DNA from: an uncultured Coriobacteriia bacterium
Lineage (GTDB): Bacteria > Actinomycetota > Coriobacteriia > Anaerosomatales > CAVYJL01
Direction of reading: 5' to 3'
NCBI GenBank assembly: GCA_963768865.1
Contig: CAVYJL010000002.1
Span: forward strand, 258,567 to 322,566
Length of the DNA stretch: 64,000 nt
How positions within the stretch are numbered: position 1 is the stretch's first letter; every line of letters begins with the position of its first letter. Positions 4,853-64,000 of the stretch are shown in pieces. The position numbers and the translations under genes were made by a program. The notes beneath the pieces are model-generated. The model saw nothing but the letters and a program-made list of their open reading frames with translations, was not told the DNA's origin and did no database searches.

Positions 4853-6107
<1,255 letters not shown>

Positions 6108-11566: not shown

Positions 11567-11639
11567 GCGGGGACCGGCGCTGTCGGCCGCGCGGAGGCAC
11601 TCGCTCGACGCGGCCGCACCCGAACCCCACGGGCCGCTC

Positions 11640-12730: not shown

Positions 12731-12764
12731 CCCGTGGCCGGCGACCAAGCCCAGGAGGCTCTGG

Positions 12765-13766: not shown

Positions 13767-13768
13767 GA

Positions 13769-26727: not shown

Positions 26728-26932
26728 CCCGGGCCTGCGCGACAGTGCGGGAACCCGAGCACGAAGATGCACGGGAGCACGCGAGGCGCGCCGCACACGA
26801 CCCGGCGAGCCGCCGCTGCGCCAGCCGCCGCTAGCCACCCCTGACCACGGCCGTTTGTTATACAGTTAGCGTACTGTTCAGAACCGGCGGGGGCTCGGGG
26901 GGCGCCGGCCGGTCACCGACGAAGGAGGGGTC

Positions 26933-35089: not shown

Positions 35090-37591
35090 ATGAATCTGAC
35101 GCAACTGACGGTCGTGGTGCTCGCGGCGACGTTCAACGCCGTGTTGGCGTTCGTCGTCTATCTCCGGAACCGGAAGAGCGCCTCCAACAACGCGTTCGCC
35201 GTGTCGGCCACGCTCATGAGCGTCTGGCTGGTCCTCAACTTCATGTGCGACCAGCCCGCCTTCTACGGGTACGCACTCACGCTGAACAGGCTCGCGGCCG
35301 CGTCCGGGCTGCTCATGGGCATGGCCCTCGTGTACTTCGGCCTGGTCTTCCCGTCCACCCGGGCGCAGATCGGCCGAGCATGGATGTGGGTGCTCGGAGG
35401 CGGCGTGTTGATCACCGGGCTCACGGTGCTCACACCCGCCGTTGTGCAGGGGGTCGAGCTCGAGAGCTGGGGGACCAACGTGGTCCAGGGACCGCTCTTC
35501 CCGTTGTTCGCCGCCTATCCGGCGGGAATCCTCATCGGGCTCGGCGTGGAGCTCGTGCGCAAGTACCGCCACGCGACCGGCAGGGACAAGAGCCAGCTGG
35601 CCTACCTCTTCGTGGGAACCGGTCTGTTCGCCCTCATCAGCATCGCTTTCGGCGTTGTCGCTCCGCTGCTCACCGGCGGCAATCAGCTCGCTTGGCTCAA
35701 CACGTTCGCGACCCCTGTGTTCATCGGCTTCATCGCCTACGCGATCGTCAGGCATCGCGTGATGGACGTGCGCTTGGTGGTCCTGCGCGGCGCCGCGTAT
35801 GCGGTGCTCGTGCTCTGCGTCGCGGCGGTGTTCGTCGCCGCCGCGATCCTGGTGCGCGCCGACATCGCCGCGCGCGTCGGGTGGGACTCCGATCTGCTCT
35901 TCATCGTGGCCGGTCTCGCGACGGCGCTGGGCTTCCAGCCTCTCAGGCGCGGCCTCGAGCGCATGACCGACCGAGTCTTCTACCAGCGCGCCTACAACCC
36001 GAACAAGCTCCTCCGAGAGCTAGGCGCGGTGACCACGCGCACGCTGGACCCCGACGAGCTAGCTGCGCAGCTCGGCGCCGGGCTGCGTGACGGAATGCGT
36101 TTGGACTTCGCGGCGACCGCTTATTGCCAGGCCGAGAACATCGAGTGCGCGAGCACGAGCGAAGACTTCACAACCGCTGACGCCCGGCTGCTCACGGAGG
36201 CCCTCGAGGACAACACCCGCATCGTCTTCGCCGACGACCCGGGCACCGACGCGGCGATCGCGGCCCTCATGACCCGCCGCGCGACGCGTGTCCTCGTGCC
36301 GCTGGAAGTGGACGGAGCGCTGAGCGGCGCGCTCTTCCTGGGCGCCAAGCGCTCGGGCGGCATGTACTCCTCCGAGGATTGGCGCTTCCTGAGCGTCCTT
36401 CGTGCCGAGGCATCCATCGCGATCAAGAACGCCCAGCTCTTCGGCGAGAAGACCCAGCGGGTGCGGGAGCTCATGGCGCTCAACGACCTGGCCTATTCAC
36501 TCGGGGCCAGCGTGGACCTCGAAGCGCTGCTGAACGGCGCGCTCGAGCAGGCCGTATCGGTGACGGGCGCGGATCGCGGCTCGATCATGCTGCTGGACGA
36601 TGAGGACGGCACCCTGCACATCGAGGCAGGCCGAGGCATCCCTCGGGAGATCGTCGAAACGGCCCGGGTGCCCGTGGGAACCGGTGTGGCCGGCTGGGTC
36701 GCCGCGACCCGCGAGCCTCTGATCCTCGTGGACGACACCGACCCGCGGTTCCACGGCGAGCTCAAGCGCGACGAGATCATCTCCGCGATCGCGGCTCCTA
36801 TCGTGCGCAAGGACAAGGTCATCGGTGTCCTCAACGTGGCTCGCACGAGCTGCGCCGAGCTCTTCACCGCGGAGAATCTGCACGTAGTGACCTCGTTCGC
36901 CGGTCAGCTTGCTGTGGCGATCGAGAACGCACGGCTCTATGAGAACCTCGAGGAGACGTTCCTCGGGACCATCGAGGCGCTCGCCGCGACCGTGGATGCC
37001 AAGGACCCGTACACGTTCGGCCACTCCAAGGAAGTCACGCGCTACGCCGTCGCCATCGCCGAGGCCTTGGGGATGCCCGAGGAGGAGATCCGTGACGTTC
37101 GCGTGGCGGCGACGCTCCACGACATCGGCAAGGTGGCGGTGGACGGCGCGATATTGCAGAAGCCCGGCAAGCTGACGGCCGAGGAACGCGAGCTGATGAA
37201 CCGTCACCCCGCCACAGGGGCGGACATCCTGTCGTCGCTCGAGTTCCTCAAGGACACCGTGCCGCTGATCCTGTTCCATCACGAGCGCTACGGCGGTGGC
37301 GGATACCCGTCGGGGATCTCCGGCGAGACTATCCCGCTCGGGGCCCGGATCATCTCTGTCGCCGACTCGTACAACGCGATGGTCTCCGACAGGCCGTACC
37401 GCAAGGCACTCTCCGTGGAGTCCGCGGTCAAGGAGCTCAAGGACTGCTCGGCCACGCAGTTCGATCCCGCAGTCGTGGACGCCTTCCTGGACGTCCTGGC
37501 GCAGGAATCACTCGTGGGCCCCGTGCGGCTTGCTCGCAGCGAGCCCGCCGGATCCGAGGTCCGACACCTCAGGGCTGTGAATGCTCGCTAA
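35090..37591 (+). CDS. Membrane sensor: N-terminal 7TM domain, two GAF domains, C-terminal HD-GYP c-di-GMP phosphodiesterase domain
   Basis: 833 aa. HD-GYP motifs HSKEVTRYA, LHDIGK, HHERYGGGGYPSG. GAF-like blocks (GALFLGAKRSG..., VAGWVAATREPLILVD...VIGVLNVAR). Confidence 0.88.
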   Translation: MNLTQLTVVVLAATFNAVLAFVVYLRNRKSASNNAFAVSATLMSVWLVLNFMCDQPAFYGYALTLNRLAAASGLLMGMALVYFGLVFPSTRAQIGRAWMWVLGGGVLITGLTVLTPAVVQGVELESWGTNVVQGPLFPLFAAYPAGILIGLGVELVRKYRHATGRDKSQLAYLFVGTGLFALISIAFGVVAPLLTGGNQLAWLNTFATPVFIGFIAYAIVRHRVMDVRLVVLRGAAYAVLVLCVAAVFVAAAILVRADIAARVGWDSDLLFIVAGLATALGFQPLRRGLERMTDRVFYQRAYNPNKLLRELGAVTTRTLDPDELAAQLGAGLRDGMRLDFAATAYCQAENIECASTSEDFTTADARLLTEALEDNTRIVFADDPGTDAAIAALMTRRATRVLVPLEVDGALSGALFLGAKRSGGMYSSEDWRFLSVLRAEASIAIKNAQLFGEKTQRVRELMALNDLAYSLGASVDLEALLNGALEQAVSVTGADRGSIMLLDDEDGTLHIEAGRGIPREIVETARVPVGTGVAGWVAATREPLILVDDTDPRFHGELKRDEIISAIAAPIVRKDKVIGVLNVARTSCAELFTAENLHVVTSFAGQLAVAIENARLYENLEETFLGTIEALAATVDAKDPYTFGHSKEVTRYAVAIAEALGMPEEEIRDVRVAATLHDIGKVAVDGAILQKPGKLTAEERELMNRHPATGADILSSLEFLKDTVPLILFHHERYGGGGYPSGISGETIPLGARIISVADSYNAMVSDRPYRKALSVESAVKELKDCSATQFDPAVVDAFLDVLAQESLVGPVRLARSEPAGSEVRHLRAVNAR

Positions 37592-37797: not shown

Positions 37798-38511
37798 GTG
37801 GAGCCCGGGTCGACCCCCGCCGTGACCATCAGTGAGCTCGAGGCCGCCATCGCCGAGATAGGCGAGGTGCGCGCCGCTCGCATCGTCGCTTCTCCCGACG
37901 GCGTGATCGAGGAGATCCATGTCCTAGGCCTGCCTGGAAAGGCGCCCAAGCAGCTGGTCAGAGACGTGGAGGCCGTCCTGATGGCGGGCTACGGGATCTC
38001 GGTGGATCGGCGCAAGATCTCCGTCGCGCAGCTGGGTATCGCCGGCGAGCGCGTGCCGCTGGCACCCGTGGCGCCCTTCCCGGCCCCACACGACGCCGAG
38101 CCTGAGCCCGAACCCGAGCTCGTTTCCGTCGCGAACCAGCGCGTCAGGCTCGCCGATCTCGAGATGGACATGGACGCCATCAAGATGACCGTGCGGGTGT
38201 GTCTGGAGTCCGAGGGGGTTACCTACCTGGGCGAAGCGAGCGGCCCCGCGGGCTCGAAGACGCGTCATCGCATGGTGGCCGAGGCCACGGTGCGCGCGGT
38301 GGAGCAGCTGCCCGGGGTGGATGAACACTACGCCGTTGAAGATGTCCAGATCGTTCTGCTAGGTGGCAGGCAGGTCGCCCTGTGCAGTATCGTTACCGTT
38401 GCCGCCTTGAGCGAAGAAGCGCTCTCGGGCTCGGCGCTCGTGCGGCACACCGCAGAAAGCGCAACAGTCAGGGCTACACTCGACGCCCTGAATCGCCGAA
38501 TAGGTCTTTGA
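37798..38511 (+). CDS. Hypothetical two-domain cytoplasmic protein
   Basis: 237 aa. GTG start after aggagggg. N-domain ISELEAAIAEIGEVRAARIVASPDGVIEEIHVLGLPGKAPKQLVRDVEAVLMAGYGISVDRRKISVAQL, acidic/Pro linker, second ~110-aa domain. I recognise no family. Confidence 0.6.
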   Translation: MEPGSTPAVTISELEAAIAEIGEVRAARIVASPDGVIEEIHVLGLPGKAPKQLVRDVEAVLMAGYGISVDRRKISVAQLGIAGERVPLAPVAPFPAPHDAEPEPEPELVSVANQRVRLADLEMDMDAIKMTVRVCLESEGVTYLGEASGPAGSKTRHRMVAEATVRAVEQLPGVDEHYAVEDVQIVLLGGRQVALCSIVTVAALSEEALSGSALVRHTAESATVRATLDALNRRIGL

Positions 38512-38639
38512 TACGCGACAAAGAGGCGCTTGGACTGGCGCTGCACTTACTAGCCTGAGGATGCACATGAGCGGAGCGGACCTTCCTCTCCCGTCGCTAG
38601 CGGGAACGGGAGAAGACCACTTGTATGGGGGGTCTTCTC

Positions 38640-38732
38640 ATGAAGAACCGCATCCTGGCGAGCCTCTACACGGCCGCCTTCGGGATTACCATGGCTTTGT
38701 TTGTACTGCCGAACAGGGCGTACTGGCACTAG
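38640..38732 (+). CDS. Candidate 30-aa hydrophobic micro-ORF (MKNRILASLYTAAFGITMALFVLPNRAYWH)
   Basis: ATG immediately after a 9-bp hairpin (gagaagacc/ggtcttctc). One predicted TM. Below the ORF-track size cut-off. No homology evidence. Confidence 0.25.
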   Translation: MKNRILASLYTAAFGITMALFVLPNRAYWH

Positions 38733-38765
38733 AGACTGATTGGTGCAGAGTCGGTCCTTTGACTG

Positions 38766-38808
38766 GCGGGATGTGGCCGAGTGGTTAGCACGCGGCCACA
38801 TCCCGCCC
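38766..38808 (+). terminator. Perfect 15-bp stem hairpin with pyrimidine/T-rich tail (terminator or attenuator candidate)
   Basis: ggcgggatgtggccg-agtggttagcacg-cggccacatcccgcc followed by cttccgttcttcgtgt. Lies between the micro-ORF and the body of the HD-GYP gene. Confidence 0.45.
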
Positions 38809-40361
38809 TTCCGTTCTTCGTGTGGGGCCTCGCAGCGACTGCTGCGGTTGCGCTCGCCGCATCTTGGATCGCGATTCCAATCAAGTTCGATGCGACACTG
38901 GTCGTCCTGGCGGCACTCGCCCTGGTCGCTGAGTGGGCGACGTTCACCTCCTTCAAAGGAGGTGACATTGCGATCAGCTACCCTATCACTGTCGCGACGT
39001 TCGTGATCTACGGGCCGACCGCCGCGGCAGTGGTTGCCGTGTTGACGTCGTTGTTGGCAACTGCGCAGCTGAGGCAGGCACCGATTAAGGTTGCCTTCAA
39101 CGTCAGTGCCTCTGTGGCGGTGGAGCTTGCGGCCGCATGGAGCTATGTCTTTTCGTTGACCTTGCTGGCGCCCAACCAGCCGATCACGCTCACATCCACG
39201 ACGGAGTTCGCCCAGTGGCCAACCCTAGTCGGGCCGATTCTCCTCGCGTCGATTGTGACGGTCTTGCTGAACACGCTCCTTGTCGTCGTCGTGCTGTGGC
39301 TGGCCGAACGCACCAGTCCGGCGGCCTCGTTTCGGCATGCGGGGCTTGGCGTCTTCTCAGTCTTGCATCTGGTAATGGGGCTTGTGGGGCTGGCTGTTGC
39401 TCTGGTCACCGTGCAATTCAACTGGGTGGGCCTAGTTGTCTTCGTATTTCCGCTGTTGGCGGCCCGGCAGATATTCCAGACCTCCGCGCGACTTCAGCAG
39501 GACTATCCTGCCACGGTCCGGATCCTGGTCCGATCAATTGAAGCGAAGGATGAGTACACGCGAGGACACTCTGAGCGGGTGGCCGACTATGCCGCTCGGT
39601 TTGGCACCTTTCTCAGCGTGAAGGAGCGCGAGGCGGAGAGGATCCAGTTTGCCGCAATGCTTCATGACCTTGGGAAGATGGGAGTTCGCGCGGAGGTCCT
39701 GAACAAGCCTGCACAACTTACCGCCGAAGAGTACTCCGAGATGAAACGCCATCCCGTCGCAGGTCTCGAGATAGTGTCGCGAATCCCGGGCACGGAAGAC
39801 CTGCTCCCGGTAATCAGGCACCATCACGAGCGAATAGATGGGCACGGGTATCCGGATGGAATCTGTGGGGACTCCATACCCTACGGATCGCGCCTGCTTG
39901 CGGTATGCGACACCTACGATGCCATGACCTCGTCGCGCCCATATCGACCGGCAATGAGCGTGGAGGAGGCGACGGCTGAGCTTGAGGCAGTGGCCGGAAC
40001 CCAACTGGACTCATCACTGGCTCGTGCATTTGTCGCGATGATCGAGGGCGGGGAGGATCGGCGAGTCATGAGCCTAACGTTGCGCCGAGTCGTCGCTAGT
40101 CCTCCTACTCCTGGCGTCCGCGATGGCCCTCGTGGCAATCGCGCGGATACAGACTGGTCAGCAGGTGCCGTCGGCCGAGGTGGCCCTTCTCTTTGCCGTG
40201 CCTTCCGTGATTCTTCTGGGCTTGGATTGGGTTACTGGGGGCTTTCTGGACAACGACTTCGCGATCGGGGCGGACATTATCCTCATTGTGGCGAGCGCTG
40301 GCGTCTATTCTGTGTTCTTGGTGATGGTTCGGCGCATGGCGTCGCTCCTGACAAGAGGTGA
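38781..40361 (+). CDS. Polytopic membrane HD-GYP domain protein. The last ~80 codons look like out-of-frame read-through, so this is probably fused to or followed by 40123-41199.
   Basis: About 7 TM segments, then YTRGHSERVADYA, MLHDLGK, RHHHERIDGHGYPDG. GTG 38781 lies inside the hairpin; GTG 38820 is an alternative start. The Arg/Gly-rich tail after ...MIEGGEDRR overlaps the next ORF by 239 nt. Confidence 0.8.
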   Translation: MVSTRPHPALPFFVWGLAATAAVALAASWIAIPIKFDATLVVLAALALVAEWATFTSFKGGDIAISYPITVATFVIYGPTAAAVVAVLTSLLATAQLRQAPIKVAFNVSASVAVELAAAWSYVFSLTLLAPNQPITLTSTTEFAQWPTLVGPILLASIVTVLLNTLLVVVVLWLAERTSPAASFRHAGLGVFSVLHLVMGLVGLAVALVTVQFNWVGLVVFVFPLLAARQIFQTSARLQQDYPATVRILVRSIEAKDEYTRGHSERVADYAARFGTFLSVKEREAERIQFAAMLHDLGKMGVRAEVLNKPAQLTAEEYSEMKRHPVAGLEIVSRIPGTEDLLPVIRHHHERIDGHGYPDGICGDSIPYGSRLLAVCDTYDAMTSSRPYRPAMSVEEATAELEAVAGTQLDSSLARAFVAMIEGGEDRRVMSLTLRRVVASPPTPGVRDGPRGNRADTDWSAGAVGRGGPSLCRAFRDSSGLGLGYWGLSGQRLRDRGGHYPHCGERWRLFCVLGDGSAHGVAPDKR

Positions 40362-41199
40362 GCGAGCACGGTCGGCTACGTTGACCTCTGCGCTCTATGT
40401 AGTTGCGCCTCCCGCATTCGTCGGTCTCGCGCTCGCCGTCGCATATCGATTCCAGTTGCCAGGTCGCGAGCCCGGCATACTGGCAACGGTCGCCGTGGCC
40501 TTTCTATATGTTGCGGTCGATGCGTGCTTCGGCCTGCTCGCGCGCGCACGCAGGCCATATTGGCCATGGGCAACGCGAGCGAACCTCGGTGCGTACGGGC
40601 TCCTCTGGATATCTCAGGTGTCTCTCGCGGCGATGGTCGCCTTGACCCTTGGGTCCCTGGGGCTGCTGACTGTCGGGCTGTTCACGCTGCTTGCGGTGCT
40701 TCTTCGGGTTGCCTATGCATTTCTCAGGCGGCTGCTGAATCTCTACACGGCTACTGCGGAAGCGCTCGCCGTTGCCCTCGAGGCGACCATGCCGAACGAA
40801 GTACGCGACACGTCACGCATAGCGGTGCTGGTGCACGATTCCGCGCTCGAGTTGGGCCTCCCGGAGGAGGATGCGTCCATAGCAGCGTCAGCTGCCTGGC
40901 TTCGCTCCATCGTTGCTGGGGGCCTCCATCCTTCGGCTCCCGAACGGTTTCTCGAGGAGGACGGCGCCGCGCTCGCGTACCCGATGCGCGTGGTCGAGGC
41001 GACCACCGACGCTTCTCTCGCTGTCGAAGAGCGCTTCCGGCGCCTGGCGGTGTTGCTCTCCGAGGCTACTCGCTTCATTGACGGTTGCAGCGATGCTGCC
41101 AACAACGGTCTCACGACGTATGCGCTAGATGACCGATATCGTCGCGCGCAGCGAGCAACAATAGCTGCAATCGAACTGACCGATAGCGGCGGGCGATGA
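40123..41199 (+). CDS. Polytopic membrane protein with a degenerate (catalytic residues lost) HD-GYP-like C-terminal domain
   Basis: LYTATAEALAVALEATMPNEVRDTSRIAVLVHDSALELGLPEEDASIAASAAWLRSI aligns by eye with DYPATVRILVRSIEAKDEYTRGHSERVADYAARFGTFLSVKEREAERIQFAAMLHDLGK of the upstream protein. GHS is replaced by DTS and HD by RS, and there is no HHE..GYP. The frame is open upstream to 40078 (SSLVLLLLASA) without a start codon. Confidence 0.6.
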   Translation: MALVAIARIQTGQQVPSAEVALLFAVPSVILLGLDWVTGGFLDNDFAIGADIILIVASAGVYSVFLVMVRRMASLLTRGERARSATLTSALYVVAPPAFVGLALAVAYRFQLPGREPGILATVAVAFLYVAVDACFGLLARARRPYWPWATRANLGAYGLLWISQVSLAAMVALTLGSLGLLTVGLFTLLAVLLRVAYAFLRRLLNLYTATAEALAVALEATMPNEVRDTSRIAVLVHDSALELGLPEEDASIAASAAWLRSIVAGGLHPSAPERFLEEDGAALAYPMRVVEATTDASLAVEERFRRLAVLLSEATRFIDGCSDAANNGLTTYALDDRYRRAQRATIAAIELTDSGGR

Positions 41200-41221
41200 G
41201 TACCGTTCAAGCGAAATGCGC

Positions 41222-41249
41222 TTTACCGTATACTTCTGCGGAGTATAAT
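41222..41249 (+). promoter_or_regulatory. Sigma-70-like promoter candidate for the STAND-SARP regulator
   Basis: tttacc (-35), 16-nt spacer, perfect tataat (-10), 45 nt upstream of ATG 41294. The spacer holds a tatact/agtata inverted repeat. Confidence 0.4.
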
Positions 41250-41293
41250 CTCGGGACTCCTGCCCCTTGGAGTGTGCCCGGGAAGGCGAATAG

Positions 41294-44200
41294 ATGGACG
41301 TTGACTGCAGTCTCCGACAAGACGATGGAGGAGCAAGTAGCGCCACTCGTGCGCCCTTGCAGCGCCAGAGGCTCCTTGAGTTGGTCGCATCGGCTGCCGA
41401 GCCGGTGGTGTTGCTCTCTGCTCCCAGCGGATACGGGAAGTCCGTACTGGCTAGACAGATTGCCCACTCAAAGCTACACGAGAGCGTAGTCTGGCTCGAT
41501 CTGCCCGAAGAGGAACTAGGCGAACGTCTCCTGCTATCTCGCCTGCTGGCTGCCCTCGACGGTGGACCCGGCGCGGCCCTCAGCGATTCGTGGGCACTTC
41601 GCCGCTACGCTGAAGTCGACCACGAGTCGCTCGTCGCGGAGAGGCTACATACGCTTCAGGGACAGCGCGTGGCTCTCGTGCTGGACAATGTCTTCGCGGA
41701 AGCAGATGTGACTCCGCTCCGCAGTCTCGTAAGGGCGTTCGGGCGAGCGGCCGGCGAGGGCAGCACCGCCATCGTGACCACTAGAATGCCGCCTGACACC
41801 CTTTCGCTGGGCGAGCCGATGCTGGTCGCGACCGCCGAAGAGCTGCGACTTCGCCAAGAAGAGGCGCAGGCCTTGGCGGACTCCTTGTCGGGCGGTTCGA
41901 TCTCAGTATCCGACGTGGTCGAGCTGCTCGATCTCGCCGCGGGGCATCTGGCAAGCTTCCTGGTCCTTTGTAGGTCCGCGTCGCTCAACGGCATGGACTC
42001 GGTGAGGGGAGTCCTTGCAGCCCTCATTGAGCGCGCGGTTGCGGGTCGTCGCCGCGGCGCAGTTGGCCCCACAGGACCGGGAACTGCTCTTCGCTTGTAG
42101 CCTCTTGGGCAAGGGAACCGAGATCGACCTCCAGACGGTGCTCGGTTCGAGGGCGAATCTGATCAACTTGGCCGAGGCTATTCCCCTGGTGAGTTGCCGC
42201 GCCCTTCCGCGGAACGGGTTCGAGTTTCGCTGTCACGACCTCGCGACCTCCGCGTTCCTCAGCCGGCAGCTGGGCCAAAGAGCAGGTGCCTAGCTGGCGC
42301 CGCCTCGTGGACAGCACTGTAGCCGTGCTCGAGGAGAGGCGAGACCTGGAGCGCGCGATCAGGGCGCTCTCGGAGTTCTGCGCCGAAGAACTCCCCGACG
42401 CGCTTGTTCATCATGGCCAGGAGATGTTGGATCGGGGTCTCACCGGCCTACTGGGCAGCGCAATTGCCCGCATCCCCGTCAGCGTACTCCTTGCCAGCCC
42501 ACGTCTTCTCGTGCTCGATGCGAATGTCCGTCTGTTGCAGGGGGACCATGTGGAGGCGGAAAGGCGGGCTTCCGTGGCGCGCGAGCTTGCTCGGCACGCA
42601 GACGATTCTGAGGCAGAGATTGAGGCGCTCACAGTCGTCGATGCTGTTGCGTATTTGCGCGGAGACATCGGGGCCTCGCAGAAGGTCCTGCAGGAGGTTC
42701 TTGGAGTTGGCGTAGGACATCTTGGACCGAGGTCTGAGCTTCTGATCCGGTCCAGCATGGCTGTCGGCTACGGGTTCGTCGGCGACATCGAACAGTGCGC
42801 TGCAGAAGTCGAGGGCGTTCAGTCGCTCCTTGACCTTGTCGACCCCAACGATGGAGCGCGGATTCGCGCTGAACTGCGTGTCGCTGGGATACAAGGAGCA
42901 CTTCGTGGAGACATGAGGGCCGCCTGCACGAGCTTGGCGTCCATTGCGGCCCGTCCTGATCTGCAGGCGGCCGTTAGGTTCGAGATCTGTCATACGCTTG
43001 CTGGGGCGCTGGTAGAAGTCGGCAGACTCGATCGGGCCAAGGCGGTACTCGCCGAAGGCTGTGCAGGCATATCTGACTATGGCTTGACCAGCCTGGAGGC
43101 GGTGGCCGATTCGGTCCGAAGCACCATTGAGGTTGGCAAGGGGGATCTTCTCGGAGGCCTGCGCCTGGTAGAGCGATGCGTTGAAGGCATGACCCGCAAC
43201 GGAGAATTGGTCAACGCCAACTACCAGCGCATCCCATACGCCCAATTGCTGGCGGCGACCGGTGACCATGAGGCCGCCCTTTCGTGTGCAGAGGAGGCAT
43301 TGGAGTTCTTTGCGGCACACCAGATTACGGTCTTCACGTACGAGGTAACCGTCTGTGTCGCACTTTGTCTCGTGGCACTGGGAGATTCTCGAGCGGCTCG
43401 ATCCCAGGCACAAGGGGTCCGGGACGCGCTCGGGGATAGCGGATACCAGTACCACGAGCTCATAGCCGATCTCGTCCTCGCTGAGGCAGATCGTCTTGAA
43501 AGGGGCGCTGATGCTGGCACCGCTCGCCTGTCTTCGCAGCGCGACTACCTGCTCTCCGAGAATGGGAACTGGGCGGTTGCGGTCTTCACCCGAGTTCTTC
43601 CAGGCCTGCTTGGAATGCTGGCCGAGGCGGTTGCGCCGGACCGGCTCCCGTTGCACATGCTTCGAATGATCGGAGACGAGAAGCTCGACGAGGCGCTGAC
43701 GATCGCGGCGACATGGATGGAGCAAGAGCAGCTTGAGGAGCTTCAGAGGCACTCGGATCGCATCCGTGTGAAGCCGCGACGGTGGGTTCGCGCCTTCAAG
43801 GGATGCTACGTCCGGATGTTCGGCGGGCTGGACGTCGCGACGCCGGAGGCCGGACGCGTGACGGACCGCGATTGGAAGAAGCGGAAGGGCCGCATGCTCT
43901 TCGCGATGCTCGTCGCCAGGCGCGGTCACGATGTCCCGCGCGACGTGCTCTTCGATCGCCTGTGGCCCGACATGGACGGAGACCGGGCGCGCAACAACTA
44001 CTATGTCGTCCTCAGCTCAGTGAAGCGTGCGCTGTGCGGCGGGACGAGCAAAGGCCGCCAGCCATACATCGTCGTCAACGGCTCGATGTGCTCCATCGAC
44101 ACGACCACCGTTCGAAGCGACTTGGACGACTTCGACGAGCTGCTCGCGCTCGCGAATCGGGCCGAGGCCGACGGCGACCCGGACGAGGCCATCCGCGCCT

Positions 44201-44604
44201 ACACCGACCTCGCCGAGATCTACTGCGGGGACATGCTCCCGGGCGACATCTACGACGACTGGTTCTCGCAGCAGCGCGATACCTACAGGCAGGAGTTCAG
44301 CGACGCGATGCAACGCGGGGCTGCGCTCCTGGAGGCCAAAGGCGACCTCGGCTCGGCTATTCATCTCGTGAGGGCGGCTCTGGGCGTGGACGGTTTGCGC
44401 GAAGATCTCCACCAGGCCGCGATGCGGTTCCAGATCGCGGCCGGCCAGCGCAGCGCGGCTGTCGAGACATACTTGGCGTGCAAGGCGCGCCTTGCCGAGG
44501 ACCTGGGGCTCGACCCATCGGCGGAAACGCGCAGGCTCTACGAGACGATCTTGGCCATGGAGGGCGACAGCGACCCGATCCCCGAGGTCCCGGCCGACGA
44601 ATAG
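41294..44604 (+). CDS. Large STAND (MalT-like) ATPase - TPR-like helical repeats - C-terminal OmpR-type winged helix plus BTAD (SARP-type) transcriptional regulator, two frame breaks (~42035 and ~42282)
   Basis: Walker A LLSAPSGYGKS, Walker B RVALVLDNV. Middle piece only in ORF 42015-42293 (LAPQDRELLFACSLLGKG...FRCHDLATSAFL). The third frame continues VPSWRRLVDSTVAVLEE... and ends with YVRMFGGLDV...RKGRMLFAMLVARRGHDVPRDVLFDRLWP (wHTH) and DLDDFDELLA...AIRAYTDLAEIYCGDMLPGDIYDDWF...LGLDPSAETRRLYETIL (BTAD). Confidence 0.8.
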
Positions 44605-44818
44605 ACCTTGGTAAGGTCTGGGTAAGGTCCTTCCCTCACCATCTGAATCCCCCATACAGGGGATCGTCCGGGCACCGCCTAGCCAGTGCAGCGAAGCGGG
44701 GTCGGCCGCTGGTCATGCCGGTCGTGTGGTGAATAGAGGGCATGCTCTCGAGGGGCACCGGGGCGGCGTGCGAATGCCGACCGATGTTAGCTGGGAGGGG
44801 TGACTCGGGGCGATCACG

Positions 44819-44971: not shown

Positions 44972-47743
<2,772 letters not shown>

Positions 47744-47819
47744 GCCGGCGGCCGACCACAGAAGTGTGTCAGCGCCGTGCGGTACCCTGAACGGGTCAAG
47801 AACCGTACGGGGGAAGCGC

Positions 47820-48965
47820 ATGATCACGGACCGCACCACCGACGTAGCCGCCCTGCGCGCGCGCCTCGGCCGCATCGAAGAGTACCTGCACTTGGACGCC
47901 AAGCGAGCGGAGATCGCCGCGTTGGAGACCAAGGCCTCAGCACCTGACCTTTGGGACGATACCTCGGCGGCTCAAGCGCTCATGGGGCAGCTCTCGGGGC
48001 TCAAGGACGAGGTGGCGGGCTACGAATCCATCTCTGCGGGGGTAGACGACCTCGAGGTCGCCAACGAGCTCGCGGTGGCCGAGGACGACGAGTCCATGGC
48101 GGCGGAGGTGAAGGCCGGCCTGAAGAGCCTGGCCAAGAAGGTCGACGACCTCGAAGTCTCCACCTGGTTCACGGGCGAATTCGACCACGGCGACGCGATC
48201 GTGACCATCATGCCGGGCCAGGGCGGGCTCGAAGCCCAGGACTGGACCGAGATGCTCTTTCGCATGTACACGAAGTACGCGGAGCGCAAGAAGTGGAAGA
48301 TCGACGTCCACGACCTGCCGCCCGGCGAGGAGCTCGGCATCGATCGCGCGGTGTTCACGGTGCATGGCCGGGAAGCGTACGGGATGCTCAGCAGCGAAGT
48401 GGGCGTACATCGGCTCGTGCGCATCAGCCCCACCGACGAGAAGAAGCGTCGGCAGACCACGTTCGCCGGAGTCGAGATCCTCCCCGTGCTCCCCAGCGAC
48501 ATAGAGGTGGACCTCAAGGACGAGGACCTGCGCATCGACGTGTACCGCTCCAGCGGCCCCGGCGGCCAGTCGGTGAACACGACGGATTCCGCGGTCCGCA
48601 TCACGCACATCCCCACCGGCCTGGTCGTCACGTGTCAGAACGAGAAGAGCCAGCTCAAGAACAAGGACAGCGCGCTCAAGATCCTCAAAGCGCGCCTGTA
48701 CGAGATCGAGAAGGCCAAGCGCGATGCCGAGCTGGCCGAGCTGCGTGGCGAGAAGAAGGACATCACCTTCGGCAGCCAGATCCGCAACTACGTGCTGTAC
48801 CCGTACCAGATGGTCAAGGACCTGCGCTCCGGGGTGGAGACAGGCAACGTGGACGCAGTGCTGGACGGCGATATCGAGCAGTTCGTCCTCGGGTACCACC
48901 GTTGGCGGGTGGGCGAGGAGCAGGGGGCCACGACAGGCGCGGTCCAGGCTCCGCCCGCGGAGTAG
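47820..48965 (+). CDS. prfB: Peptide chain release factor 2, uninterrupted (no programmed +1 frameshift site), with SPT in place of the SPF tripeptide
   Basis: RF2-type flanks VHRLVRISPTDEKKRRQTTFAGVEILP. GGQ motif SGPGGQSVNTT. ATG 47820 after ggggga. The N-terminus reads RIEEYLHLDAKRAEI without an internal stop. Confidence 0.93.
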   Translation: MITDRTTDVAALRARLGRIEEYLHLDAKRAEIAALETKASAPDLWDDTSAAQALMGQLSGLKDEVAGYESISAGVDDLEVANELAVAEDDESMAAEVKAGLKSLAKKVDDLEVSTWFTGEFDHGDAIVTIMPGQGGLEAQDWTEMLFRMYTKYAERKKWKIDVHDLPPGEELGIDRAVFTVHGREAYGMLSSEVGVHRLVRISPTDEKKRRQTTFAGVEILPVLPSDIEVDLKDEDLRIDVYRSSGPGGQSVNTTDSAVRITHIPTGLVVTCQNEKSQLKNKDSALKILKARLYEIEKAKRDAELAELRGEKKDITFGSQIRNYVLYPYQMVKDLRSGVETGNVDAVLDGDIEQFVLGYHRWRVGEEQGATTGAVQAPPAE

Positions 48966-50087: not shown

Positions 50088-51764
50088 GTGGATGGCATGG
50101 CATACGAGGTATCCGTCTATAGCGTGATGTACGCGATGGCCGCGGTCGTTACCGCGGTCGTGGCTTCGTTCGTCTGGCGCCGGCGCGACACCCCCGGTGC
50201 GATGTGGCTGTTCTTGATGATGATGGCCATGGTCTGGCGGACGACCTGCGATGCCATGGATGTCTCGGCCGTGGCGGTGAGCACAAAGGTCTTCTGGGGG
50301 CAGATGTCCTACGTGGGATCGATGGCCGTGCCGGTGTTCCTGCTGATGTTCACCTTCGCGTACACAGGCCGCCGCCGCTGGATCACCCCGCGAAACGTCG
50401 CGCTACTCTTCGTCGTGCCGGTGCTCAGCCTCGTCGCCGTGTCGTCCAACTCGGTGCACCACCTCGTCTGGAGCGGATTCTCAGCCGCCGCACTGGATCC
50501 CCGCATACTCATCTACCATCACGGGCCGCTCTTCTGGGTGATCATGGGCTACGTGCATGTCCTGGTCCTGACCGCGGCGATCATGCTCGTCGCGCGATCG
50601 CTGGAGACCGCGGACGCCTACGGTTACCAGGCCCTGGCGCTGATCGCGGCGATGTTCATCCCCTGGGTGGCCGAGCTCGTGTACGACTTCGTGCCGGACT
50701 TCTTGCCCGGCCTAGACGTGGTCGCGCTCGTGTTCCCCGTCAGTGCGGTGATCCTCGCCGTGAGCATCTGGCGAGGGGGATTGCTGGATCTTGTGCCTAT
50801 CGCCCGGCAAACGCTCGTCGAGACCATGGACGACGGGTTGCTCGTGATGGACCCCGGCGGCCGCATCGTGGACATCAACCCGGCGGCTGCCAGGACGTTC
50901 CACGCGGACCACCGGGTCATAGGGCGGATGGTGGACGAGGCTCTGGCCGCATGGCCCTCGGTCGCCACGTCTCTCAAGGGCGCGGCGGCGGACGGGGGCA
51001 ACGAGCGCATGGATCTGACCATCGTGGCCTCGGATGGTCGCCACCTCGCGCTGAAAAGCACCCCCATCATGGACGAGTCGGGCAGGCCCACGGGGACCCT
51101 CACGGTCATGCGCGACGTGACCGACCACGTCATGATCGAGGGGGCGCTGCATGAGGCCAATGAGGAACTGAGGGCCCGTCTCGAGGAGATCGAGCATCTC
51201 CACACCGCCCTGCGCCAGCAGGCATTGCACGACCCGCTGACGGGGCTCTACAACAGGCGCTACCTGGACGAGACGCTGGAGCGCGAGTTCGCGCGGGCGA
51301 CCCGGGACGGCCATCCCATCAGCGTGATCATGATGGACATCGATCACTTCAAAGAAGTGAACGACAACTATGGCCATGCCGCCGGCGACCTGGTCCTCGA
51401 GCTGATCGGGCGCGAGCTCAGGGAGCGCACGCGCAGCGGCGACGTCGCATGCCGGTACGGAGGCGAGGAGTTCGTGATCGTCCTGCCCGACACGTCTGTC
51501 GTGGCGGCCTACAAGCGTGCCGAGGAGCTGCGCGCGGCTCTCGAGCGGGCAGAGGCCACGTGGATGGAGGACCGCCTCGCGCCCACCTTCTCGCTGGGAG
51601 TCGCGGCCTTCCCCGTTCACGGTGCGAGCCCAGAGGCCGTGCTCGCGGCGGCCGACGCCGCCCTCTACCAGGCCAAGAGCGAAGGCCGCAACAGGAGCGC
51701 CGTCTTCAGGCCCCGGATCGCGGGAGTGAGCGCCCCCAAAGACCGCGCGGGCACCGGGACGTAG
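50088..51764 (+). CDS. Membrane diguanylate cyclase: N-terminal 7TM sensor domain, PAS, GGDEF (GGEEF active site)
   Basis: 558 aa. PAS-like LLVMDPGGRIVDINPAAARTF. DPLTGLYNRRYL, MMDIDHFKEVNDNYGHAAGD, RYGGEEFVIVL. Confidence 0.9.
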   Translation: MDGMAYEVSVYSVMYAMAAVVTAVVASFVWRRRDTPGAMWLFLMMMAMVWRTTCDAMDVSAVAVSTKVFWGQMSYVGSMAVPVFLLMFTFAYTGRRRWITPRNVALLFVVPVLSLVAVSSNSVHHLVWSGFSAAALDPRILIYHHGPLFWVIMGYVHVLVLTAAIMLVARSLETADAYGYQALALIAAMFIPWVAELVYDFVPDFLPGLDVVALVFPVSAVILAVSIWRGGLLDLVPIARQTLVETMDDGLLVMDPGGRIVDINPAAARTFHADHRVIGRMVDEALAAWPSVATSLKGAAADGGNERMDLTIVASDGRHLALKSTPIMDESGRPTGTLTVMRDVTDHVMIEGALHEANEELRARLEEIEHLHTALRQQALHDPLTGLYNRRYLDETLEREFARATRDGHPISVIMMDIDHFKEVNDNYGHAAGDLVLELIGRELRERTRSGDVACRYGGEEFVIVLPDTSVVAAYKRAEELRAALERAEATWMEDRLAPTFSLGVAAFPVHGASPEAVLAAADAALYQAKSEGRNRSAVFRPRIAGVSAPKDRAGTGT

Positions 51765-57821: not shown

Positions 57822-58827
57822 TTGTTCTCGCTGTTCTCAGCTCTCGCAACGAAGCCCAAGAGCGCGCCGCCGGCACCGGACTACACCGACGCCGTGGTCG
57901 TGAAGGGCCTCGCCAAGCACTTCGGCGACTTCCACGCCGTGGACGGCATCGACTTCTCGGTCCACAAAGGCGAGATCTTCGGCTTCCTGGGCCCCAACGG
58001 CTCCGGCAAGACCACGACTATCCGCATGCTGTGCGGCGTCATCGATCCCACCGGTGGAGACGTCGAGGTCCTCGGCTACGACGTCGCCACGCAGGCCGAG
58101 ACCGTCAAGGAGCGCATCGGCTACATGAGCCAGAAGTTCTCCCTGTTCGAAGAGCTCACCGTGGACCAGAACCTCAAGTTCTACGCCGGCATCTACGGAC
58201 TGGACGAGGCTCAAGTTCGCCGAGCGCAGGGCCTACGTCCTGCGCATGGCCGACCTCGAGGGCCGCGAGGACGAGCTCACCAAGAACCTGTCCGTGGGCT
58301 GGAAGCAGCGCCTCGCGCTCGGTTGCGCGACGATCCACGAGCCTGAGCTGCTCTTCCTCGACGAGCCCACGAGCGGCGTCGACCCCATCGCCCGGCGTCA
58401 GTTCTGGGAGCTGCTCTACGAGCTGTCCGCGAACGGCGTCACGCTCTTCGTGACCACCCACTACATGGATGAGGCCGCCCACTGCAACCGGCTGGCGTTC
58501 ATGTACCGCGGCCGTCTCATCGCCGAAGGCAGCCCCCAGGTCGTTCGCGAGCTCATGACCGACACGGTGCTCGCGATGTCCGTGGACGTTCCGGACGACG
58601 CGCTCGAAGTCCTAGAAGGCATGGAGGACGTCAAGGAGGCGTACCTCCACGGCCCGCTCGTGCACTTCAACATCGGGCAGCTCGATCCCGAAGACATCGA
58701 TGTCCGCCGCCGGCTCGAGGAGCGAGGCCTTCACGTGGGCGAGATGGCGCCGGTGCTGCCCAGCCTGGAGGACGTCTTCGTGCACCTCGTGAGCGCGCAG
58801 CAGGCACAGGCCGCCCAGGACTCCTAG
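57822..58827 (+). CDS. ABC-2-type transporter ATP-binding protein (second copy), one frame break near 58215
   Basis: Walker A GPNGSGKTT. After YGLDE it continues in the +1 frame: MADLEGREDELTKNLSVGWKQRLALGCATIHEPELLFLDEPTSGVDP. Confidence 0.88.
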
Positions 58828-60314: not shown

Positions 60315-61489
60315 ATGCTTGAAGTGCAGTCCACGGATCGGGAGGAGAGCGTCTTCAAGGGGCTATCGCGCAGGGACTTCCTGAAGTACTGCACGTACCT
60401 GACCGCTCTCATCGGGCTTGATGCGACGGCTGTGCCTCAAGTGGCCGAGGCTCTAGAGAACGCCGCCAAGCTGCCCATCGTGGTGTGGAGCCAGTTCCAG
60501 GAGTGCACGGGTTGCGCCGTCGCGCTCTTGCAGAACACCGCACCCGACCCCGGTCAACTCATCCTGCAACAGATCTCACTCGCATATCTGGAGACCGCCA
60601 TGGCCACGGCTGGGGCCTACAACGCCGCGGGCCAGAACTACACCGAGCTGAATTTCAATGAGGCGTTCAAGCAAGGCGCGGTGTGGATCATCGAGGGATC
60701 GGTGGCCACGAAGATCCCGAACGCTATGACCGTCGCCGGCAAGGCTTCGACGGACATCGTCAAGGAGAACTACGCCAAGGCCAAGGCCGTCATCGCCATC
60801 GGCCAGTGCGCCTGCTACGGCAACGTGCAGGCCGCCACCCCGAACCCCACCGGGGCCATGGGGATCGGCGACTATCTGCGCAAGGAGGGGGGCGTCCCGG
60901 ACGCGAAGGTCGTGAACATCGCGCGGTGTCCGGGCAACGGCGAGGACCTGCTCGCCGCCATCACCTACATCCTCGTGCAGGGTGCGCTGCCGCCGCTGGA
61001 CGACCTGGGCAGGCCGCTGTTCCTCTATGGCCAGACGATCCACGACAACTGCGAGCGTCGCGGCCACTTCGATGCCGGCGAGTTCGTGGAGCAGTACGGC
61101 GACGCCAACAGCGCCAAGGGCTACTGCCTCTACAAGGTCGGGTGCAAGGGCCCGGTGACCAACGCTCCATGCGGAGTGAACCGCTGGAACGGACGGGTCT
61201 CGTGGTGCAACGCATCCGGCGGGCCGTGCACCGGCTGCGCCGAGCCCAACTTCTGGGACGACTTCACGCCGTTCGGACAAGAGTCCCCGGCTGGTCGTTC
61301 CCGGGCCTCGCCGGAGTCCCTCCGGCAACCGTGGGCTGGGCCCTCGCCGGCGCGACCGTCGTGGGCTTGGGAGCGCACCTCATCGGCCAGGTGGCGACGG
61401 GGCGCGCCTTCAAGGGCGGCCAGGTGGTCACCACCGACGTCCCCGATGACGCGGACAAGAGCGGCACGACGAAGGGCGGTGGTGCGTAA
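60315..61489 (+). CDS. [NiFe(Se)] hydrogenase small subunit, Tat-exported, C-terminal membrane anchor, one frame break near 61270
   Basis: Twin-arginine signal SRRDFLKY. Proximal cluster CTGC. GYCLYKVGCKGPVTNAPCGVNRWNGRVSWCNASGGPCTGCAEPNFWD. The tail VPGWSFPGLAGVPPATVGWALAGATVVGLGAHLIG is in ORF 60683-61489. Confidence 0.9.
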
Positions 61490-63139
61490 TGGCCAAGCAG
61501 AAGGTCGTGATCGATCCTCTGACTAGGATCGAGGGACATCTCCGCATCACCTGCGCCGTCGAGAACGGCAAGGTCACGGACGCGTGGAACACGTGCACGA
61601 TGTTCCGCGGCTTCGAGATGGTCATGAAGAACCGCAAGCCGGCCGACTGCTGGCACTTCGCGATGCGGATCTGCGGGGTGTGTCCTACGCCCCACGGAGT
61701 GGTCGCCGCCGGTGCCGCCGAGGCCGCAATGGGCCTCACCAAGATCCCGGAGAATGCGGTCCTGCTGCGCAACATGCTGCTTGCGGCGATGCTCGGCTAC
61801 GACCACATCTTGTGGTTCTACCAGCTCAACGCGTTCGACTACGTCAACGTACCGGACACGCTCAACGCCAAGACCACCGATCCGCAGCTCAAGGCGCTGC
61901 AGGATGTGGTCAAGGCCAACGCAACGTCGGGCCAGCCGGGGCTCTTCAGCAACATGTGGTGGAACAACCCGGGCTACAAGCTCACGCCGGAACAGAACCT
62001 GACCTTGACCGCTCACTACCTGGCCTCGATCGAGGCCCAGCAGTGGGCCAACCAAGCGTCTGCGATGTTGGCCGGCAAGTTCCCGCACGTCATGACGCTG
62101 GCTGCCGGCGGGATGACCACCCAGCCCACCATCGAGCAGATCATGTACTACCAGGACTACATGATGAAGGTGAAGGAGTTCGTGGACGTCACGCTCTGGA
62201 ACGACCTTCTCGCTGTGGCTCCTGCGTACCTGGATCTGGCGACGTACGGGCAGGGCGTGGGCAACTTCCTCACGTGGGGCAACTTCGACGACCCCAAGAC
62301 CCAGACCATGGACACGAGGCTCTTCCCGCCCGGCATCATCTTCAACAAGGACTTCACGGCACCGGCCAAGGCCGACCCGACCAAGGTCAAGATGTACACG
62401 GACAGCTCCTGGTATCCCACGGATCTCGGCGCCGGAAAGCCCCCGATCCAGGTGGGTCAGGATCCGCAGCAGTTCACGCAGCTTCCGTCCATCACGGGGC
62501 CCGACTTCCCCAGCGGCAAGTACGACTGGACGCAGACGGCCAACTATCCCGATCCTCGGGCAAGCCGGTGCCCATGGAAGTGGGTCCGCTCGCCGAGGTG
62601 CTGGTCGCCTACGTCAAGAAGGAGCCGCAAACGGTCACGCTCGTGGACCAGGTGCTGGCCGCGGTAGGCCAGAAGGGCAATCCCGCGGTGCTCGTGAGCA
62701 ACCTGGGCAGGATCGCAGCGCGCGTCATCCACGCTCGCGCGAACGCCGCCTACGCGCTCAAGTGGTCAGACGAGCTTCTGGCCAACGTCAAGGCCGGCAA
62801 CACGACCGTCTACGAGCCTCCGCCCAATACGAGCGGAGACGGGCCGGCTTCGCAACGCAGGACGCCCCTCGGGGCGCGCTTGCGCACTACTGCGAGATGA
62901 AGGGCGGCATGACCTCGGCATGGTCCGCGGTACCCCCGTCCAACTGGAACCTCGCGCCGCGCAACGCGTCGGGCGCTAGGGGCCCCGTGGAGCAGGCACT
63001 CGTAGGGACGCCGGTCGCCAACGTGAACGAACCGCTGGAGATCGTGCGGACCGTCCATACCTTCGATCCTTGAATGGGCTGCGCGGTTCACGTGATTGAA
63101 CCAGAGCACAACCGCATCCTAGAGTTCAAGGTCCGCTAG
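61489..63139 (+). CDS. [NiFeSe] hydrogenase large subunit. In-frame TGA (63071-63073) read as selenocysteine. Two frame breaks (~62550, ~62842).
   Basis: N-terminal Ni motif RICGVCPTPH. APRGALAHY. C-terminal ...EIVRTVHTFDP-TGA-MGCAVH-VIEPEHNRILEFKVR-TAG matches DP(C/U)xxCxxH plus the cleavable extension. The ATG overlaps the small-subunit TAA. Confidence 0.88.
63085..63102 (+). promoter_or_regulatory. Candidate bacterial SECIS hairpin
   Basis: ggttca-cgtgat-tgaacc: 6-bp stem with a 6-nt loop containing GU, starting 11 nt after the TGA. An alternative outer pairing is gcggtt (63083-63088) with aaccgc (63110-63115). Confidence 0.5.
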
Positions 63140-63155
63140 AAGGGGGTGTTCGTAG

Positions 63156-63836
63156 ATGGCTGAAGCGTTCACCGTCGAAGAGCATCCACTGACAGCGGTG
63201 GTCCTGCATTGGGTGCACCTCGTCAGCTTCCTGTCGCTCGCGGTGACCGGTCTGCTCATCTGGGCGGCGCCGGTGGGATGGAACATCGCGGCTGCTCGCA
63301 ACTTCCACTTCGTGATGATGTTCGTCTTCGTCCTCACGACCATAGTGAGGATCTACTGGGCGTTCCTGGGCCGAGGCTCGGCGGACACCGGCAAGACGAC
63401 CCTCGTGCGCGACTACAAGCATTTCGCGCCGGAGGCAGCCAACAAGGGGCTGTTCATCGAGTGGATCAAGTACTACTTGTTCGTCCGGAAGTCCAAGCCG
63501 CCGGTGCCCAAGTACGGCACGCTGCAGAAGATGACCTACGGCATCCTGTTCCCCGTGAGCATCTTGCTCATGGCGCTCACAGGCTTCGCGATGTGGTCCA
63601 ACACCGCCGCCGCGATGATGTGGTTCACCAACCTGCTGGGCGGTCTTGACACCGTGCGCATGTGGCACCTGTTCCTGTGCTGGATCATGCTCATCTTCGT
63701 GGCGATCCACGTCTACTTGGTGGTCTTCGAAGAGCCGGTCCAGCTGTACTCGATGCTCTTCCATGTGATGCCGGAGAAGTACCGGCCGCGCTCCATGCGT
63801 GGAGTGAAGGGTGCTGCGGAGGCAGCCAAGGACTGA
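63156..63836 (+). CDS. Ni/Fe-hydrogenase b-type cytochrome subunit
   Basis: 226 aa with 4 TM segments and conserved His positions (HWVHLVSF, HFVMMF, IHVYLV). Position directly after the large subunit. Confidence 0.85.
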   Translation: MAEAFTVEEHPLTAVVLHWVHLVSFLSLAVTGLLIWAAPVGWNIAAARNFHFVMMFVFVLTTIVRIYWAFLGRGSADTGKTTLVRDYKHFAPEAANKGLFIEWIKYYLFVRKSKPPVPKYGTLQKMTYGILFPVSILLMALTGFAMWSNTAAAMMWFTNLLGGLDTVRMWHLFLCWIMLIFVAIHVYLVVFEEPVQLYSMLFHVMPEKYRPRSMRGVKGAAEAAKD

Positions 63837-64000
63837 TGCCGAGGATCAGCATCATCGGCATAGGCAACACGCTCAGAGCCGACGACGGCGTCGGCGTCCG
63901 GGTGGCGGAGGAGCTCTCCTCCCGCGACCTGGGCGCCGGCGTCGACGTCGTGAGCGGTGAGCTCGCAGGCATGTTGCTCGCGCCGTACTTCATCAACAGC
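63836..64000 (+). CDS. Hydrogenase maturation endopeptidase (HyaD/HybD family), N-terminal 55 aa (3' end outside window)
   Basis: MPRISIIGIGNTLRADDGVGVRVAEEL. The ATG overlaps the cytochrome b TGA. Confidence 0.8.
   Translation, partial: MPRISIIGIGNTLRADDGVGVRVAEELSSRDLGAGVDVVSGELAGMLLAPYFINS

Follow-up and report, generated by a model that had tools for sequence, protein, structure and literature searches.

[NiFeSe] hydrogenases are prized for their high H2-production activity and their fast recovery from O2. To our knowledge, the examples studied come from sulfate reducers and methanogens. Those of the Hys type are soluble or lipoproteins, and they reduce cytochrome c3. In group-1 [NiFe] hydrogenases generally, a C-terminal tail is cleaved after a His. 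The HydDB classification confines [NiFeSe] variants to groups 1a, 3a and 3c, and lists group 1i as a 'Coriobacteria-type (putative)' group split off from 1a (PMC5037454). The first cultured Anaerosomatales, which grow on H2, carry the same four-gene operon that is considered below, described as group 1i [NiFe] with selenium unmentioned (PMC9686372), and a review restricts the occurrence of [NiFeSe] hydrogenases to sulfate reducers and methanogens (PMC13188914). Here we analyze a hydrogenase operon at the end of a 64-kb stretch of the metagenomic contig CAVYJL010000002.1 (assembly GCA_963768865.1); "the window" below always means this stretch at its full length. The large-subunit gene of the operon is crossed by an in-frame TGA codon at the position of a nickel ligand, and the operon very probably encodes a group-1 [NiFeSe] hydrogenase that sits in the membrane, faces outward and oxidises H2, in an uncultured actinobacterium of the class Coriobacteriia.

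The frame upstream of the TGA reads ...LEIVRTVHTFDP, and downstream it continues through MGCAVH and a 15-residue tail to a TAG, exactly as an earlier account made from the letters alone (the sequence-only reading) had described. The TGA aligns on Cys530 of the Desulfovibrio gigas large subunit (PDB 2frv), the first Cys of its DPCIACGVH. This bears out the C-terminal nickel position proposed in that reading, and alignment to solved enzymes agrees with its argument that with a stop here two of the four nickel ligands would be lost. Its frame for the large subunit holds around the TGA; it is only the last of three, the frameshifts having been overlooked. The 6-bp hairpin it pointed out 11 nt after the TGA is present, and is conserved with covariation in the relatives described below. 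A second contig, L204 (1534 bp), comes from a separate public assembly of run ERR12035932 and shows no difference to the window across 63045-64000, where the TGA lies; the reads behind the two may, however, be the same. UGA otherwise acts as an ordinary stop, ending the cytochrome b gene and two other confident genes of the window, which also carries prfB for release factor RF2 (TIGR00020, 480 bits). As UGA ends the neighboring gene and prfB is present, a genome-wide reassignment of UGA was ruled out. The predicted decoding of this one codon as selenocysteine (Sec) is supported by the alignment and by its conservation among relatives.

A protein search with the read-through large subunit as query gave, as its best 120 matches, proteins of 53-83% identity. 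Apart from one partial protein and the window's own truncated open reading frame (ORF), these are 118 complete homologues. All of them end at the stop that the gene callers placed at this same codon, with the sequence ...FDP and once FDA, and none has a Cys at the TGA position. In the one deviant (P0066, ending ...HTFDA), the Pro ahead of the putative Sec codon, invariant in all others, is replaced by Ala. The names attached to these homologues are Coriobacteriia, Thermoleophilia, 'Candidatus Aquicultor' and metagenome-assembled genomes (MAGs) of Actinobacteria. At the DNA level the TGA was found in L001, L003, L004, L005, L010, L011 and L019, and in every relative that was read as DNA it is followed, in frame, by [MI][GA]CxVH, a tail and a stop. 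Within the window's own clade, the closest intact relative is the metagenome contig L001 (83% identical to the window enzyme), followed by a MAG (L004, 76%), a Thermoleophilia MAG (L005, 57%) and a Coriobacteriia MAG with a 2.8-Mb contig (L003, 55%). In these four the frame runs on past the TGA through M[GA]C[AS]VH to a tail of 15 residues and a stop, and inspection of the gene calls revealed the four-gene operon also in L001 and L003. A second Sec-type clade, comprising L010, L011 and L019 (a Slackia MAG), reads U-IGC-[AG]VH with a different tail; here the codon after the TGA encodes Ile (ATC, ATT or ATA) and is no start codon. A scan of the genome collection with a single protein as query produced no match. 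An alignment-based genome scan yielded, among the matches listed, mostly distant Cys-type enzymes, which were used as controls: all of the at least 74 Cys-type group-1 sequences have TGC or TGT at the nickel codon.

To the C-termini of the genome loci and the window we added those from a metagenome scan with the pattern TTYGAYCCNTGAATNGSNTGY, which fixes the TGA and the next three codons and leaves the hairpin unconstrained; about 70 of the 120 pattern matches were due to chance and were discarded. The pooled set holds 46 true C-termini, 45 of them unique, and C-A-V-H is kept in frame across all of the latter. Nearly all 45 form a perfect stem of 6-8 bp that starts 10-12 nt past the UGA, with a loop that begins CGUG (CGUG(A/G/U)U), the commonest form being CGGUUCA-CGUGAU-UGAACCG. 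The mean best stem at this site is 7.0 bp in the Sec-type sequences versus 4.5 bp in the 74 listed Cys-type ones (Mann-Whitney p = 2e-16, with the relatedness of the sequences left in). In an ungapped alignment of 42 distinct sequences, 86% of the cells of a 7-pair helix are paired, versus at most 58% when the partners are slid against each other, and the unpaired cells come from six sequences in which a like hairpin is shifted by one base. Both sides have changed in three of the pairs (C-G/G-C, G-C/C-G and U-A/G-C; 18 cells), and the covariation score of 0.165, against 0.034 in shuffles, was reached by none of 500 shuffles. Codon usage points to the same element. The stem codons GTT, ATT and GAA make up 3.4% of Val, 0.3% of Ile and 15% of Glu codons, respectively, in 15 confident genes of the window, ATT being used for one of its 350 Ile codons, and their joint expectation is 1.6e-5. 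Furthermore, the third positions of GTT-CAC-GTG-ATT-GAA are invariant in 17 of 17 unique members of the clade, and the flanking codons vary. In the window the stem begins 11 nt past the TGA, and the CGUGAU loop, with its G at position 2, fits the rule that bacterial SECIS (selenocysteine insertion sequence) elements have a G in the first two loop positions (PMC13582414). The prediction that this hairpin is a bacterial-type SECIS is thus supported.

The small subunit carries a further feature of selenium-containing hydrogenases. A Cys (in VSW-C) aligns with the Pro that lies beside the medial [3Fe-4S] cluster of standard [NiFe] enzymes (Pro242 in Escherichia coli Hyd-1). The W-C pair recurs in eight of the nine small subunits of the window's Sec clade and in three Cys-type sisters from Nitrospirota, and 40 of 43 Cys-type loci have Pro at this position. 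The sole exception among the nine is L198, a Sec-type member of the window's clade whose small subunit has the Pro. Exchange of this Pro for Cys turns the medial cluster into a [4Fe-4S] cluster, and natural [NiFeSe] enzymes have the Cys; the D. fructosovorans P238C variant and the structure of the Desulfomicrobium (Dm.) baculatum enzyme are reportedly the examples behind this. The alignment accordingly predicts a medial [4Fe-4S] cluster, as in the known [NiFeSe] enzymes.

With their frames joined (see below), the small and large subunits have 391 and 550 residues, and the best solved matches of the joined large subunit are the D. gigas enzyme (2frv, E 5e-111) and E. coli Hyd-2 (E 5e-110). The C-terminus of the small subunit, which lies beyond a frameshift, is a hydrophobic membrane anchor. 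For a product identical to the cytochrome b, the Pfam domain PF01292 (Ni_hydr_CYTB) is on record; against the NCBIfam model TIGR02125 it scores 102.6 bits (E 2e-29), under the equivalog cut-off of 121.5. The maturation protease, in its full form from L204, matches NCBIfam TIGR00072 with 120.3 bits (cut-off 47.45). The signatures of group-1 [NiFe] enzymes are present, namely both nickel motifs (with U for the first C-terminal Cys), the twin-arginine (Tat) signal, the cytochrome b, and the tail together with its endopeptidase. A Tat-exported small subunit with a C-terminal anchor, a large subunit, a cytochrome b and a maturation protease confirm the group-1 uptake arrangement named in the sequence-only reading, and this gene set has the predicted layout of a membrane-bound, outward-facing uptake hydrogenase.

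Table 1. Coordinates of the hydrogenase operon and its sequence elements in the window
Feature	Position	Strand	Basis or remarks
Small-subunit gene	60315..61489	+	TIGR00391 hydA, 313.7 bits, cut-off 179.5 (joined protein, NCBIfam)
Tat (twin-arginine) motif RRDFLK, within SRRDFLK	60369..60386	+	Small-subunit signal peptide; direct translation
Cys codon of VSW-C, medial-cluster position	61206..61208	+	Alignment to the small subunits of E. coli Hyd-1 and D. desulfuricans
Large-subunit gene, TGA read through	61489..63139	+	End-to-end alignment with D. gigas 2frv and E. coli Hyd-2
N-terminal nickel motif RICGVCPTPH, two Cys ligands	61666..61695	+	Direct reading; columns invariant in 44 homologues
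In-frame TGA, putative selenocysteine codon, first Cys position of DP-U-MGC-AVH	63071..63073	+	Alignment and conservation
C-A-V-H, second C-terminal Cys ligand and His of the protease cut	63080..63091	+	Direct reading
Predicted SECIS hairpin	63085..63102	+	Stem GGUUCA/UGAACC, loop CGUGAU (GGTTCA 63085-63090, CGTGAT 63091-63096, TGAACC 63097-63102)
15-residue C-terminal tail VIEPEHNRILEFKVR (63092-63136), then TAG (63137-63139)	63092..63139	+	Length and sequence conserved in the clade
b-type cytochrome membrane subunit	63156..63836	+	Own stop TGA 63834-63836
Maturation endopeptidase gene, start only in the window	63836..64000	+	163 residues, complete in L204

In the assembly, both structural genes are interrupted. 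In the ORF list, with the frames read side by side, the small subunit is spread over two frames and the large one over three, and nucleotide alignment to the L001 operon locates three single-base gaps, at ~61282 in the small and at ~62558 and ~62842 in the large subunit gene. Two of the three missing bases fall in C or G runs; the gap at ~61282 is in a C run, and the membrane anchor of the small subunit thus stands in another frame. A tblastn search with the L001 proteins likewise gave two frames for the small subunit and three for the large one, the last of them running through the TGA to 63136. Single-base frameshifts are also seen in other stretches of the window (522-1432, 6939-8235 and 57822-58827): the essential gene atpG is split likewise (522-1202 and 1112-1432), and so are the genes for a UDP-glucose dehydrogenase and an ABC ATPase. 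A plot of G+C at third codon positions (GC3) by frame switches every few hundred bases in 10400-14200 and 38400-44700. The many frameshifts of the window look like the indel errors of a long-read assembly, and as atpG and other genes are split alike, the three in the hydrogenase structural genes are probably assembly errors as well.

The interrupted frames bear directly on the possibility that the operon is a decaying pseudogene, in which the frameshifts are real and the TGA is an ancestral codon without importance in the host. Three 1-nt deletions in 2.8 kb do look denser than in intact neighbors such as secA. All three are, however, single missing bases of the kind that splits the other genes just named, two of them in homopolymer runs, and the frame plot shows many more such switches. 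Moreover, there is no further stop or disruption, the protein retains 83% identity to that of the intact L001, the coding GC3 signal persists, and the cytochrome b and protease genes are intact; we consider decay improbable. The UGA might alternatively be recoded to another residue, either to Cys by a SelB-dependent tRNA of the tRNA-ReC type or to Trp or Cys by near-cognate read-through. Cys-inserting tRNAs at SECIS-directed UGA codons have been reported (PMC13582414), and the sequence gives nothing by which to tell Sec from Cys insertion. Nevertheless, the canonical position, the hairpin with its loop G and the [NiFeSe]-type small subunit all match known selenoenzymes, and a Cys codon would be simpler, yet not one of the 118 clade members uses it, which makes such recoding less probable still. 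An error for TGC or TGT in sequencing or assembly has the least to commend it, and its probability is close to nil. The assembly clearly holds errors, but those seen are single-base indels and no substitutions, and more than 100 relatives from unrelated samples stop at the same codon. The sequence-only reading had named a TGC or TGT at 63071-63073 in the reads as one finding that would overturn it; in L204 the codon is TGA, with the reservation about a possible common origin in the same reads given above.

It has also to be considered that the UGA is a true stop, in which case Pro528 is the last residue of the large subunit, and the CxxH part is either missing or translated on its own, as a 21-residue peptide, from the ATG that follows. 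This ATG comes directly after the TGA in the window's clade, and it is here that both the gene callers and the NCBI annotation let the protein end. Against this, termination would cost the enzyme two of its four nickel ligands as well as the site of protease cleavage, though the protease gene is retained, and a Met at this place is also common in Cys-type enzymes (DPCMAC). There is no ribosome-binding site to be seen ahead of the ATG in the window sequence, and the downstream part is always in the frame of the upstream part. As the second Sec clade has Ile, and no start codon, after its TGA, the CxxH part is not a separate protein: a split large subunit was rejected, and the contrary outcome envisaged in the sequence-only reading, relatives that stop here and have the CxxH part in a protein of its own, was not seen. 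True termination is therefore very unlikely. Other observations weigh against selenocysteine at this site and should be set beside the evidence in its favor. Folded alone, 63071-63125 is no more stable than its shuffles (z = -0.39), Rfam gave no SECIS match, either at the gathering threshold or at a permissive E-value on 63000-63200, and the 6-bp stem of the window is one pair shorter than that of most relatives. Given the z-score and the lack of an Rfam match, the evidence for the hairpin is comparative and from codon usage, not thermodynamic. To these are added the three frameshifts within 2.8 kb of the two subunit genes, and the absence of selA, selB, selD and a tRNA-Sec gene (selC) from the 64-kb window. 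Finally, selenium in the mature large subunit is, for the whole clade, a prediction from sequence.

As regards the machinery for Sec insertion, a search with ARAGORN gave no tRNA-Sec for the window or for any locus collected for comparison, and tblastn with E. coli SelA, SelB and SelD against the same sequences returned only one SelB homologue, on the unlinked contig L137. It is full-length (L137 4666-6564; 608 residues aligned to E. coli SelB at 30% identity); L137 had entered the set as a chance match to the pattern, and this SelB homologue is not linked to a hydrogenase. Actinobacteria are among the phyla known to decode Sec (PMC5322559; PMC1794560), and the sel genes of the host would be expected elsewhere in its genome.

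If the operon does encode a [NiFeSe] enzyme, the following course of events may be envisaged. SelB with Sec-tRNA would bind the hairpin in the mRNA, and the UGA would be decoded as selenocysteine, whose Se would become the terminal nickel ligand in DP-U-MGC-AVH. Once the metal is in place, the product of the protease gene at 63836 would cut past the His and release the 15-residue tail. The small and large subunits would be exported together via the Tat system, with the C-terminal helix of the small subunit serving as the anchor in the membrane. Electrons from H2 would pass through three iron-sulfur clusters, the medial one being predicted as [4Fe-4S], to the cytochrome b, and from there presumably to the quinone pool.

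The host is an uncultured actinobacterium of the class Coriobacteriia. The best named matches of its SecA, at 70-73% identity, are almost all from Coriobacteriia MAGs, and one of them lies on the same 2.8-Mb contig as the relative L003. An LCP-family protein, an HPF-SecA-RF2 neighborhood and a raiA RNA motif fit a Gram-positive background, in keeping with the Gram-positive-type context that had been recognized from the sequence. The raiA motif (25542-25787, + strand; Rfam RF03072, 162.6 bits) is situated upstream of an ORF at ~25720-26830. prfB (47553-48962, + strand) lies directly 3' of secA and covers profile positions 3-351 in one frame, showing no sign of the programmed +1 frameshift that occurs in the prfB of many bacteria. 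In 13 confident genes of the window the stop codons are TAG (9), TGA (3) and TAA (1), a share of TAG that is unusually high for a genome of 67% G+C. An ORF at 4793-6583 (+ strand) combines an EPSP_synthase (MurA-like) domain with a following FabA-like dehydratase domain and is either a fusion or a frameshift artefact. Signaling genes stand close together at 35090-37591, 38781-40361 and 50088-51764; they encode a 7TM-PAS-GGDEF cyclase (7TM, seven-transmembrane) and a pair of HD-GYP-type (HD_5) proteins, of which one also has a GAF domain and a 7TM region.

In the literature we found no report of the window's clade as [NiFeSe] enzymes, though the Coriobacteriia enzymes may have been mentioned earlier. 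The mechanism itself is known. The enzyme belongs to a cytochrome-b-linked actinobacterial lineage that the curated NiFeSe families do not take in and whose large subunits are shortened in public annotation. A large membrane-bound group of actinobacterial proteins, annotated as truncated [NiFe] enzymes, probably consists of selenium enzymes. The annotation error is systematic, in that the public proteins of the clade stop at Pro528 and lose two nickel ligands, and such proteins could be scored as truncated or non-functional. Should the reading hold, an actinobacterial, quinone-linked [NiFeSe] clade would broaden the natural diversity available for study, and the metabolism of many MAGs from the subsurface and from sediments would have to be read anew, as their H2 uptake would depend on selenium.

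The large subunit finds its best NCBIfam family in NF033181 ('NiFeSe_hydrog') with 436.1 bits, below the cut-off of 600, and scores 329.7 bits against HysA (NF045518), below the cut-off of 780. Against NF033181, the relative L003 of the window's clade scores 468.7, L011 of the second Sec clade 505 and the Cys-type Eggerthellaceae enzyme L044 485; sequences of the classical type from metagenomes (L149, L085 and L099, with 721, 752 and 651) pass the cut-off, as does the Cys-type Nitrospirota enzyme L006 with 607. An approximate, midpoint-rooted neighbor-joining tree has five groups on one side: the clade of the window enzyme, the second Sec-type clade, the Cys-type Eggerthellaceae that are sisters of the latter, the enzymes of classical type and those from Nitrospirota. 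The other side holds all remaining Cys-type group-1 enzymes. The hairpin sequence is near-identical across the three Sec groups. In two Cys-type Eggerthellaceae, remnants of the hairpin follow the TGT (L071, GUUCA-UGUGUC-UGAAC; L065, CGGUU-CAUGU-GACCG), and their weakened state suggests a reversion from Sec to Cys. Given the near-identical hairpins of the three Sec groups and these remnants, the comparison, made on a weak tree, favors an old, shared Sec with later reversions to Cys. A broader proposal can be put forward tentatively, with a little less than an even chance of being right in full: that the cytochrome-b-linked respiratory hydrogenases of environmental Coriobacteriia, Thermoleophilia and related anaerobic Actinobacteria are as a group selenoenzymes, cut short in present annotation, that a single ancient SECIS is shared by them and the Desulfovibrio type, that Sec is ancestral to the entire 1a/1i-like branch, and that Cys in gut Eggerthellaceae and in Nitrospirota arose by reversion. 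If true, this proposal would contradict the restriction to sulfate reducers and methanogens stated in review (PMC13188914). The hairpin common to the clades would offer a test case for evolution from Sec to Cys and from Cys to Sec, and the size of the unrecognized clade, together with its clash with review statements, would merit a short study.

Among known systems, the closest solved structures for both subunits are the 1b enzymes of D. gigas and D. vulgaris Miyazaki and the 1c enzyme E. coli Hyd-2. Hyd-2 has a 15-residue tail like the window enzyme, whereas these 1b and 1c enzymes differ from it in having Cys at the nickel, Pro at the medial position and a [3Fe-4S] cluster. The minimal SECIS of E. 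coli fdhF is an upper stem-loop that begins 11 nt after the UGA. The window element has in common with it a stem-loop inside the coding sequence, the 11-nt spacing and G-U in the apical loop; its stem, in contrast, is without the bulged U, and its loop is the 6-nt CGUGAU rather than GGUC. The [NiFeSe] enzymes of group 3 (Methanococcus Vhu/Fru) and group 4 also have a Sec ligand at the Ni-Fe site, that of group 3 in a C-terminal UxxC, but they are cytoplasmic or energy-converting complexes with other subunits, and in group 4 the Sec belongs to the N-terminal motif (PMC13582414).

HydDB group 1i (Eggerthellaceae, Anaerosoma tenue and Parvivirga hydrogeniphila) comes from the same host class and has the same four-gene operon, a likeness that is drawn from the published description and from host class and layout (PMC9686372). 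It falls in the same half of the tree as the window's clade and has in common with it the proposed role, quinone-linked H2 uptake in anaerobic respiration. The group differs in being described as [NiFe]: the isolate Eggerthellaceae L044, L052, L065 and L071 carry TGC or TGT, and the Eggerthellaceae enzymes are, among the matches listed, 36-39% identical to the window enzyme. With the Hys [NiFeSe] enzymes of group 1a (D. vulgaris and Dm. baculatum; PDB 2wpn, 5jsh and 1cc1), the window enzyme would share the Sec at the first Cys of DPCxxCxxH, and it shares the extra Cys of the small subunit, with its predicted medial [4Fe-4S] cluster, and a dedicated maturation protease. HysA-like metagenome sequences (L099 and L114) also have the hairpin over the V-H-V codons with a CGUG loop. 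The window enzyme is nevertheless distinct from the Hys type: its large subunit scores 258 bits to 5jsu versus 375 to the D. gigas [NiFe] enzyme and its small subunit 161 bits to 2wpn_A versus 248 to 1h2a_S, its operon adds a cytochrome b and a membrane anchor on the small subunit, and its host is an actinobacterium and no sulfate reducer.

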